64,000 bases of DNA from Narcine bancroftii (lineage: Eukaryota), in assembly GCF_036971445.1 (NCBI RefSeq), contig NC_091477.1:3100001-3164000 (forward strand), read 5' to 3'. The translations under genes were made by a program, and so were the position numbers. Each line of letters begins with the position of its first letter. Position 1 is the stretch's first letter. Positions 60,663 to 63,604 of this stretch are shown here, one piece after another. Below the pieces are notes generated by a model that was not told the origin of the DNA, did not search any database, and saw nothing but the letters and a program-made list of their open reading frames with translations.

Positions 60663-60917
60663 CACGAGAGGATGTGTGTTTAAGGGGATGGGAAATTTTA
60701 AAGGAGATGTTTATGGGAGTGGTGGGTGCCTGGACTGGTTTTTGTGGGGTAGTGGTAGAAGTAGACATAATAGTAGCAATGAAGAGGCTTCTAGAAAGTC
60801 ACATGGGATGCTTATGTTGATGACGTGCAAGCAGTTATAGTCAGCAGATACACCTGAACCTCACTGTACTACATCCCCATTCTCAGTTCAACGTCCGGCA
60901 AGAGGAGCGATGTGAGT

Positions 60918-61050
60918 GGCTGTACGTGACCTAGCGTCCCCATCAACCAGGGAGTTGCTGGATAGACAAGGATAGATGGAAACGTGTTGCTTTCTGCAGG
61001 GGGAACGACACCCTTGGCACGGAGCAGCCAGGGCGTAACTTATCCTGCAC
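60918..61050 (-). ncRNA. SNORA63: H/ACA snoRNA, SNORA63/E3-like, copy A
   Basis: Hairpin tgcagg..cctgca, H box AAAGCA, second hairpin, and ACA 3 nt from the end; 133 nt. Shares GCAGGAT, GCTGCT, TGTCGTTCCCCCTGC, CTAT and GGGACGCT.GGTC blocks with human SNORA63 as recalled. Confidence 0.85.
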
Positions 61051-61076
61051 CTAACCAGGGGGTCCCATCAACTCAC

Positions 61077-61153
61077 CAATCCGCCCAATTTTCATGCCAG
61101 ATCGAGCCAAGGCTCTCAGAGCTGACTGTGCTCCAGGCCCAGGGGTCTTGGTC
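61077..61153 (-). CDS. RPS14: RPS14 coding exon ([25 protein letters not shown])
   Basis: 77 nt, tttccag| and |gtgagt; peptide matches vertebrate RPS14. Confidence 0.98.
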
Positions 61154-61704
61154 CTGGAAAGAAACAAGAGCATACTTCAAATCCTGCACAGGTACGACCA
61201 ATAATGGGACCTGAGGCATAAACATAATGATGAAAGGATTCAGCAGGTTGAGGGGTCAATATTCTCTTTCTTCACCAACCCTGACACAGATCCAACAAAA
61301 ACAAATGCTGGACAAACTGAGGCTACACACAGGAGACTGTAGACGCTGGAATCCAGAACAACACACGATCTGCTGGAGGAACTCAGCGGGTCAATTATCA
61401 ATCAGCAGTATGGACAATATCTTGGGTTGGAATCCTTATTGAGACAGTCTTAATAAAAGGTTCTGACCCAAATTACTGGCTCTTTTACTCCCACTAATGC
61501 TGCTTGACCTGCTGAGTGTCCCCAGATTCCAGGAGCATCTGTGGAAAAAGTTAGTTAGAAGAACAGACTCTGGTCTGGTTCAAAGATTAACTAGTTCCTC
61601 TCTAACTGAACTCTTCCAGCATGTCAGTTCTTACTTCTCATTCCTGCACCTATGCTGTACATCCCCATTCTCAGTTCAACGTCTGGCAAGAGGAGTGATT
61701 GAGT

Positions 61705-61837
61705 GGCTGTTCGTGACCTAGCGTCCCCATCAACCAGGGAGTTGCTGGATAGACAAGGATAGATGGAAACGTTTTGCTTTCTGCAGGGGGAACGACACCC
61801 TTGGCACAGAGCAGCCAGGGCGTAACTTATCCTGCAC
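61705..61837 (-). ncRNA. SNORA63: H/ACA snoRNA, SNORA63/E3-like, copy B
   Basis: Near-identical to copy A; H and ACA boxes intact. Confidence 0.85.
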
Positions 61838-61942
61838 CTAACCAGGGGGTCCCATCAACTCACCGATCAGATTTAAAGCTTAATTTTTTTTGAATGGGAA
61901 ATTAAACCACCAACCAACCAAACTGGCCCCTTAGTTACCGAC

Positions 61943-62104
61943 CTATTGCCTCCAGTTGCTCGGAGTTTGATGTGCAGAGCAGTGATGCCCAGCTCCTTGC
62001 ACCTCTGGGACACGTCTTGAGCAGCCAACATGGCAGCGTACGGGGAGGACTCGTCTCTGTCTGCTTTCACCTTCATGCCACCAGTGACGCGGCAGATGGT
62101 CTCT
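61943..62104 (-). CDS. RPS14: RPS14 coding exon ([54 protein letters not shown])
   Basis: 162 nt, ttttcacag| and |gtcggt. Confidence 0.98.
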
Positions 62105-62559
62105 CTGTGAAAAGATGGAAGTGTGTCACAAAGAAGATTCAACATGCAACACCAAGGACCTCCCAGTGACCAACCATTTTGCTTCTACACCCTTTTGCCA
62201 CACTGGCACCAAGCAGAGGCCACCCACAAAGTGGAGGAACAATTCTGTCTTGGCTGTTTCCAACCAGTATTGGCCTCTAATTTCTGTGAACTGCCTCCCC
62301 TGGTCCCCCTTCCCCTCCTATCATTTTCTGCCCTCTCTCTCATCACCTTGGCTTCTTTCTCTTCTACCCTCCCACCTGCCTCCACTGATTACTTATTATT
62401 GCCAATCTGCAACTCATCACTGGACTCATCACCGACATGGACATACCCCAGACCCTAGTCGTCAGAACTGGGCAGGAAGGAAAACCGTTATGCCTGCTGG
62501 AGATCAACATTCCCAGCATATCGCTGTAGGGCAGTGTCTTGAGTTCCAACATCTAGACA

Positions 62560-63155
62560 CAGGCAGGGCTTGAAAGCACTGATAATCCAGAGGGATCTGG
62601 GGATGGGTCCGGGTTAATAGCTCCTTGAAAGCAGCCATGCAGGTAGAGATAGGTTGGGAAAGGTGTGTGGTGTGCTTGCCTTCACTGGGTGGGGCATCAA
62701 ATACATTGTTGCTCTACAACACTTGGGTGAGGGTACACGTGGAATACTGTGTCCAATTCTGACTGCCCCATTACAGGAGGGAATGTGGAGGCTTTTAAAG
62801 CCACAGGAGAGATTTACCAGAGTGTGGGAAGAGCTGATGGAGATTAATAAAATTACAAAGCACTTGACAGGACAAGTATCACCCATGGGAGGATATACAT
62901 TAAGGGGAGGGGGAAGTTTAAGGGAGATGTGTGGGGAAAATATTTTACGATGTGGTGGGTGTCAGGAATGAGTTACCAGGGGTAGTGGTGGAAGCAGATA
63001 TAACTGGAGCGTTGAAGAGACATTTAGATAGAAATATGAAGGGGATGAAGGAATATCCAACAGGTGCAAGCATCAGTCTACGTTTGATTTGGGCATGTTC
63101 AGCGGACACAAGGATTGATTAGCCTGCTTTTGTGCTATAAAGTTCCAGGTTCTAT
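62560..63155 (+). mobile_element. Highly degenerate CR1-type LINE fragment in an RPS14 intron
   Basis: Residual RDLG, QERFTRV and WNELP-like sequence with a CR1 tail. Confidence 0.6.
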
Positions 63156-63294
63156 AGTGAGGACTATAGGCAGGATATTGGCCTGCCCCAGGGAGAGCAG
63201 CCAGCACAGGCCAGTCATTTTACTTCTCATTCCTGCACCTGTGCCGTACATCCCCGTACTCCTTTCAACATCTGGCAAGGGGAGAGATTTGAGT

Positions 63295-63427
63295 GGTTGT
63301 ACGTGACCTAGCGTCCCCATCAACCAGAGAGTCGCTGGATAGACAAGGATAGATGGAAACGTATTGCTTTCTGCAGGGGGAACGACACCCTTGGCACGGA
63401 GCAGCCAGGGCGTAACTTATCCTGCAC
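63295..63427 (-). ncRNA. SNORA63: H/ACA snoRNA, SNORA63/E3-like, copy C
   Basis: Near-identical to copies A and B; H and ACA boxes intact. Confidence 0.85.
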
Positions 63428-63504
63428 CTAACCAGGGGTCCCACCAACTCACCAATCAGATTTAAAGCTTAATTTTTTTTTAAACTAGAAATTAAACCAC
63501 CAAC

Positions 63505-63604
63505 CGACTGGAGTCGATGGGCTGATGAGGAGGAAACGAGTTCCTTTCTGCAGGGGGAACGACAACCGCAGCACTGAGCAGCCGGGGTGCAACTAATCCT
63601 GCAC
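63505..63604 (-). pseudogene. Diverged, 3'-truncated SNORA63-like copy D
   Basis: Keeps the 5' hairpin (tgcaggattagttg..tgtcgttccccctgca) and H box AAAGGA, but lacks the GGGACGCT and ACA end. Confidence 0.7.

Follow-up and report, generated by a model that had tools for sequence, protein, structure and literature searches.

Probable SNORA63 guide RNAs in three introns of RPS14 of the ray Narcine bancroftii, with signs of DNA-level copying inside the gene

The human gene for the H/ACA small nucleolar RNA (snoRNA) SNORA63/E3 is hosted by EIF4A2. In chicken, E3 (listed as GGgACA30) is located in intron 8 of EIF4A2 (PMC2653536). Xenopus has two SNORA63 copies, which flank SNORA4 and follow SNORA81; the supplement rows that list them do not name the host, and both SNORA81 and SNORA4 are placed in EIF4A2 by the chicken tables. 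For zebrafish, the listings in PMC11880993 contain four SNORA63 calls, the family labels being cmsearch calls made in that study itself. Two of these are located in introns of rplp0, one has conflicting hosts and a second family call, and one is also called as a member of a C/D family. Five snoRNAs of about 128 nt are listed for rplp0, of which two are called SNORA63 and the other three carry no family in those rows (PMC11880993). Changes of host among broadly expressed genes have been described as constrained drift (PMC3511168).

Two sites in 28S rRNA, 4390 and 4491 in human numbering, are marked as pseudouridine in both human and frog in the supplement of PMC6984369, which assigns them to SNORA63, the 4491 site via the 5′ pocket in frog. 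Pairings of 4+5 and 4+7 between chicken E3 and the equivalent sites were listed in 2009 (PMC2653536). With respect to how such RNAs multiply, intragenic duplication is given as the main source of snoRNA paralogues in chicken (PMC2653536), and cow U17HG is an exon-carrying example of snoRNA duplication (PMC1687206). In Xenopus, a ribosomal-protein gene (S8/S7) has U17/SNORA73 in every one of its six introns. Like the RNAs described here, U17 is an H/ACA RNA present once per intron; it differs in having six copies and another host in mammals, and in acting in rRNA processing and not as a pseudouridylation guide (PMC7601244). For cartilaginous fishes, our literature search found no survey of snoRNA hosts.

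We analyzed a stretch of 64,000 nt from the ray Narcine bancroftii (contig NC_091477.1, positions 3,100,001 to 3,164,000; hereafter the window), to which all coordinates below refer. On the minus strand between 59.4 and 64 kb, RPS14 is represented by four coding exons, which have GT-AG borders and are separated by introns of 1767, 789 and 1543 nt. We number these as introns 2, 3 and 4, on the presumption that the usual non-coding first exon lies outside the window. The first coding exon, which is cut at the window end (63872..64000, minus strand), matches Pfam family PF00411 (Ribosomal_S11), and all of its 43 visible residues (43/43) are identical to those of solved vertebrate S14/uS11 chains. 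Exon 3 (61943..62104, 162 nt), exon 4 (61077..61153, 77 nt) and the coding part of the last exon up to the stop codon (59466..59533), all on the minus strand, were assigned from their translation and GT-AG borders.

The same strand carries an exon of CD74 (invariant chain; PF09307, 37885-38040), a gene that adjoins RPS14 in human. Among 21 candidates, 13 proteins could be compared with this exon: identity was 100% for the N. bancroftii protein, 78-90% for five other rays or skates and one further record, and 71-82% for six sharks, values that make an origin of the window in a ray likely. A protein atlas search with this exon gave only matches of 0.82, which were uninformative. Elsewhere in the window, a short exon-like frame (30640-30714, minus strand) matches the HIT zinc finger PF04438 with 24.4 bits, just below the cut-off of 24.7, and two long tandem arrays (35500-36400 and 54900-56250), with open frames in several phases, are minisatellite-like. 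Intron 4 of RPS14 contains a 47-nt inverted repeat (60397-60443 and 60616-60662), the arms of which are 91% complementary and 172 nt apart, with related arms around 32254-32405; it is likely a relic of a small DNA transposon. A candidate C/D snoRNA in the same intron (snoR116, 59992-60077, minus strand) was rejected: it scores 27.7 bits against 47 (E 0.029), has no clear D box and is likely a chance match.

The preliminary description of this DNA had proposed three 133-nt H/ACA units, in sense orientation to RPS14 and one in each visible intron, and our analysis of boxes, folds and Rfam matches on the minus strand confirms this. Copy A, in intron 4 (60918..61050), starts 26 nt past the 5′ splice site of that intron and, besides having the boxes and pockets of a full unit, matches the SNORA63 model RF00092 with 63.4 bits (E 5.2e-9). 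Full copies are likewise present in intron 3 (copy B, 61705..61837; 65.7 bits, E 1.7e-9) and intron 2 (copy C, 63295..63427; 64.8 bits, E 2.7e-9), both on the minus strand. Over 133 positions, B is identical to A at 130, C to A at 129 and B to C at 127. Each of the three can fold into a hairpin, an H box (ANANNA, position 58), a second hairpin and an ACA box (position 128) followed by 3 nt; in B, the last pair of the 3′ stem is open owing to a single change. Their folding energies are modestly low (z -2.09, -1.76 and -2.03, with 3, 8 and 10 of 200 shuffles, respectively, being equally stable).

The Rfam search suggested in the preliminary description was run on positions 59000-64000, and SNORA63 accounted for the top four of 14 matches with E values up to 10. 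Copies A to C cover positions 1-130 of the model with E values from 1.7e-9 to 5.2e-9, and the next H/ACA family follows at E 4.3; none of the four Rfam matches in positions 1-59500 is to SNORA63. The gathering score of RF00092 is 90 bits, all four copies score below it, and at gathering score the whole window gave no Rfam match. The copies are not formal members of the Rfam SNORA63 family, and the reading that fits them best is that of a diverged orthologue. When the conserved pocket arms were searched for as a two-part pattern, the window gave three matches, a number reached in none of 100 shuffles. Scanning for homologues with such a pattern gave no match in viral contigs; the loci found in metagenome contigs (none, or one with a looser pattern) and prokaryote genomes (two) were rejected as chance, since none of the three has an Rfam match at E values up to 1.

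The fourth copy, D, is located in intron 2 together with C (63535..63604, minus strand). It is identical to A at 59 of 70 positions and scores 43.2 bits (E 9.2e-5) over 63475-63604. It had been taken for a diverged copy, and it does retain the 5′ hairpin, an intact pocket and the H box; however, it is only half a copy, without the 3′ pocket arm and without ACA, so that the H/ACA layout is complete in three of the four. D lies upstream of C, and the two are separated by a 37-nt unrelated-looking tail and a fold-back spacer. When the 3′ part of D is aligned with A, 32 of 65 positions are identical, which is near the random range.

In H/ACA RNAs, each pocket lies 14-16 nt from its box, and this distance is 14 nt for all seven pockets present in the RPS14 copies (3′ pocket to ACA, 5′ pocket to H box). 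The 28S sequences used as targets are those of human and frog, with pseudouridines marked, from the supplement of PMC6984369. Against these, the 3′ pocket of A, B and C forms 4+5 contiguous pairs around human 28S position 4390, followed by a mismatch and two more pairs, in line with the single mismatch described previously; D has no such pocket. The 5′ pocket forms 4 (one G-U) + 7 pairs around position 4491 in all four copies. A second target for this pocket had been proposed as well; the proposal proves correct (psi4491), but the pairing is not new, having been published for SNORA63 (PMC6984369) and for chicken E3 (PMC2653536). SNORA10 is reported to be absent from fish other than Latimeria (PMC6984369), and in such fish SNORA63 would therefore remain as the guide for 4491. 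The RPS14 copies thus resemble SNORA63/E3 of human, chicken and Xenopus in their full-length match to the model, their two pockets and their two 28S targets, with the same pairing counts as in chicken, which supports the identity given to them earlier.

They depart from the SNORA63 genes of the EIF4A2 cluster in their host, RPS14, in scores below the Rfam cut-off and in the one mismatch of the 3′ pocket. Location in the EIF4A2 cluster is a tetrapod trait and does not define the family, as the zebrafish calls are located elsewhere. Our literature searches did not show RPS14 described in print as a host of SNORA63, and Ensembl, RefSeq or RNAcentral may already annotate the copies automatically. 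RPS14 hosting annotated across fishes would lessen the novelty; rps14 occurs zero times in the supplement of PMC11880993, and the zebrafish catalogue given there does not record it.

Cartilaginous fishes branch outside the bony vertebrates. With an EIF4A2 cluster in chicken and frog, rplp0 in zebrafish and RPS14 here, the hosts do differ, and in this loose sense the earlier proposal of host switching holds; a move specifically from EIF4A2 to RPS14 is one possibility, three lineages with three hosts being compatible with more than one direction of the switch and more than one ancestral host. RPS14 could in principle be the old SNORA63 host of jawed vertebrates, EIF4A2 in tetrapods and rplp0 in zebrafish being later homes. 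We consider this unlikely, though it is the strongest of the alternatives, and as it concerns only the direction of change, it is compatible with the explanation that we prefer. In its favor, tetrapods and zebrafish differ in host, cartilaginous fishes are the outgroup to both, and D, in the half that corresponds to the 5′ part of A, is 84% identical to A with its structure kept, which suggests that residence in RPS14 predates the copying that gave A, B and C. However, the argument is built on one genome, the flanks of the copies are still 78-94% alike, as expected of recent copying, and the zebrafish and chicken tables searched have no entry for RPS14.

The pattern of changes among the copies bears on whether they function. 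Variation among A, B and C affects six of the 133 columns of the core, compared with 12 of the 79 columns of their shared flanks (Fisher p 0.010). The pockets and boxes are free of it: the six columns belong to loops, the hinge, the tail and the last pair of the stem. Between D and A there are 11 differences over 70 positions, and the 26 positions assigned to stem, pocket or box, a set chosen after viewing the alignment, contain none of them (P 0.0035). Pair counts over the four 5′ hairpins, which are four close sequences, gave 62 of 64 cells paired with three one-sided and no two-sided changes, a count that 134 of 500 shuffles equal or exceed and that thus does not show covariation. The RPS14 copies might be silent or dispensable, with a working SNORA63 still in EIF4A2 or another host. 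Consistent with this are the scores below the Rfam cut-off, the mismatch that all three full copies have in the 3′ pocket with respect to the human and frog target, and the broken state of D. On the other hand, the core is better conserved than the flanks, boxes and pockets are untouched in all three full copies, the changes in D avoid the constrained sites and all copies are in sense orientation to a broadly expressed gene. We consider it improbable that the copies are silent or dispensable.

The sequences around the copies inform on how they spread. About 31 nt upstream and 48 nt downstream are common to A, B and C. Identities are 29-30 of 32 positions upstream and 39-45 of about 50 downstream, compared with a mean of 43% for random pairs of intron sequence. 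Upstream of A (61051..61081, minus strand), the shared segment begins with the final 5 nt of exon 4, continues through the genuine 5′ splice site of intron 4 (61076) and extends for another 20 nt. The segment upstream of B (61838..61918, minus strand) contains a copy of this exon end and 5′ splice site (61863), together with about 50 nt common only to C; it is 89% identical to 63428-63508 over 82 nt. In the spacer between D and C (63428..63534, minus strand), D's tail and an A/T-rich fold-back accompany another copy of the 5′ splice site (63452). Downstream, the flank of A (60870..60917, minus strand) is common to B and C, with 9 of 48 columns variable among the three. The downstream flank of B (61631..61704, minus strand) has a distal part common only to the flank of C (63220..63294, minus strand), with 87% identity over 70 nt to 63220-63289. 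Beyond the segments common to all three, B and C thus share 50 nt on the upstream side and about 27 nt on the downstream side. The distal downstream flanks of B (61631-61657, minus strand) and C (63220-63246, minus strand) also contain a word of 9 nt with which the snoRNA itself starts; this is perhaps the stub of another copy or a recombination point.

The idea that the snoRNA spread within the gene, already put forward from the sequence, is supported by these common flanks, and in particular by the copied exon end and 5′ splice site that they include. DNA-level copying would fit this arrangement, and retroposition does not. A conceivable alternative is that the mature or partly processed snoRNA spread by retroposition: in mammals, retroposed snoRNAs that include downstream intron sequence are common (PMC1687206), and the tail of D contains an A-run. 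Yet the copies bring with them a splice site and, upstream of the snoRNA, parts of intron and exon, and all are located in one gene. Moreover, the combination of an A-rich tail and a 7-19 nt target-site duplication that serves as the criterion in PMC1687206 is found in none of the three full copies: around A, B and C, there is no A-tail (the longest run is 2-4 nt) and no direct repeat of at least 7 nt (0/3 copies). We regard retroposition as very improbable.

With DNA-level copying as the preferred mode, the flanks also suggest an order of events. As B and C have the end of exon 4 and its splice site in the middle of an intron, the position of A is the likely source of the cassette. The upstream flank shared by B and C includes the tail of D, which suggests that C may have given rise to B. 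The downstream flanks of A and B are closer to each other (45/51) than either is to that of C (39/50 and 42/51), a mosaic that suggests later gene conversion. We infer, from flank patterns in one genome, that intron 4 was likely the source of a cassette, made up of the final bases of exon 4, the splice site, the snoRNA and about 48 nt of downstream sequence, that was copied into intron 2, where, as C, it would have landed on and cut the older copy D. C, with its longer flanks, was then likely copied into intron 3 to give B, and a later exchange between A and B would have followed. The mode would be DNA-level duplication or gene conversion inside RPS14.

The three full snoRNAs are likely released by splicing, and the 3′ pocket would then serve 28S position 4390 and the 5′ pocket position 4491. 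The sequence and position of the copies, their boxes, their pairing and their shared flanks are direct observations; we infer from the sequence that the copies are expressed and active as guides. All in all, we consider it probable that each of three RPS14 introns carries a full SNORA63, a predicted guide for 28S positions 4390 and 4491, and that the RNA spread by DNA-level copying within the gene.

That the repeats are an assembly artefact is hardly credible: the units are near-identical and 196 N occur elsewhere in the window, but 3-6 core positions tell the copies apart, their flanks are graded and distinct, each intervening exon occurs once and in the right order, and most words of the stretch are found in sequencing runs of a second study. 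Eight of the 12 sequencing runs listed contain at least half of the words of the RPS14 snoRNA stretch; all eight are from one organism, and the four from the second study contain 0.67-0.90 of the words. No RNA run is among those listed as containing the stretch. This supports the stretch being real, and nothing beyond. The four runs of other organisms among those listed contain 0.05-0.17 of the words, which has no bearing on conservation.

When scored against the 5′ splice-site consensus, the copied sites at 61863 and 63452 (minus strand) agree at 7 of 9 positions, equal to the real exon-4 site; the real exon-3 site agrees at 6 of 9. Reading on from exon 3 to the copied site of B would add 79 nt with an in-frame stop. 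If this site is used, the result would be an RPS14 isoform bound for decay, and the snoRNA would still be released. Between D and C, a long G-U-rich fold-back (63430-63535, minus strand) is unusually stable (z -4.00; 1 of 200 shuffles as stable), in a segment picked after the fold had been seen. Possibly it is a scar left at a junction by the duplication. The idea that it was selected to hide the copied splice site is not supported, as the equivalent region of B has a z of -0.46 and the GU is itself in part unpaired. The D and C copies jointly cover 310 nt, and D, which keeps an intact pocket and H box, could supply the 5′ end of a composite D+C guide of that length. The copied splice sites, the fold-back and the D+C span may also simply be passengers of a recent duplication. 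It seems to us a long shot that RPS14 has long been home to SNORA63 in cartilaginous fishes, unrecorded so far, and that, in addition, the mode of copying carries regulatory weight.

Compared with the systems outlined at the start, the family, its targets, the copy pattern and the mobility among hosts are already known, and the host gene RPS14 is what our literature searches did not show in print. The SNORA63 of Xenopus is also multi-copy, with two genes in the tables, and the RPS14 set comprises three full copies and a half. In zebrafish, too, several copies are called in introns of a ribosomal-protein gene that is not EIF4A2, here rplp0, a different gene from RPS14 (PMC11880993). The RPS14 cassette differs from the known cases of cis-duplication in having brought an intact 5′ splice site into two other introns.

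These results change no model, since both targets are published, as are changes of host and copies repeated once per intron; they would carry more weight with RPS14 as ancestral host or with the copied splice sites in use. The flanks of the copies preserve a record of how an intronic snoRNA would have spread, the copied splice site included. With RPS14, three vertebrate lineages would have three different host genes for one and the same conserved guide, in keeping with a drift of snoRNAs among broadly expressed genes.
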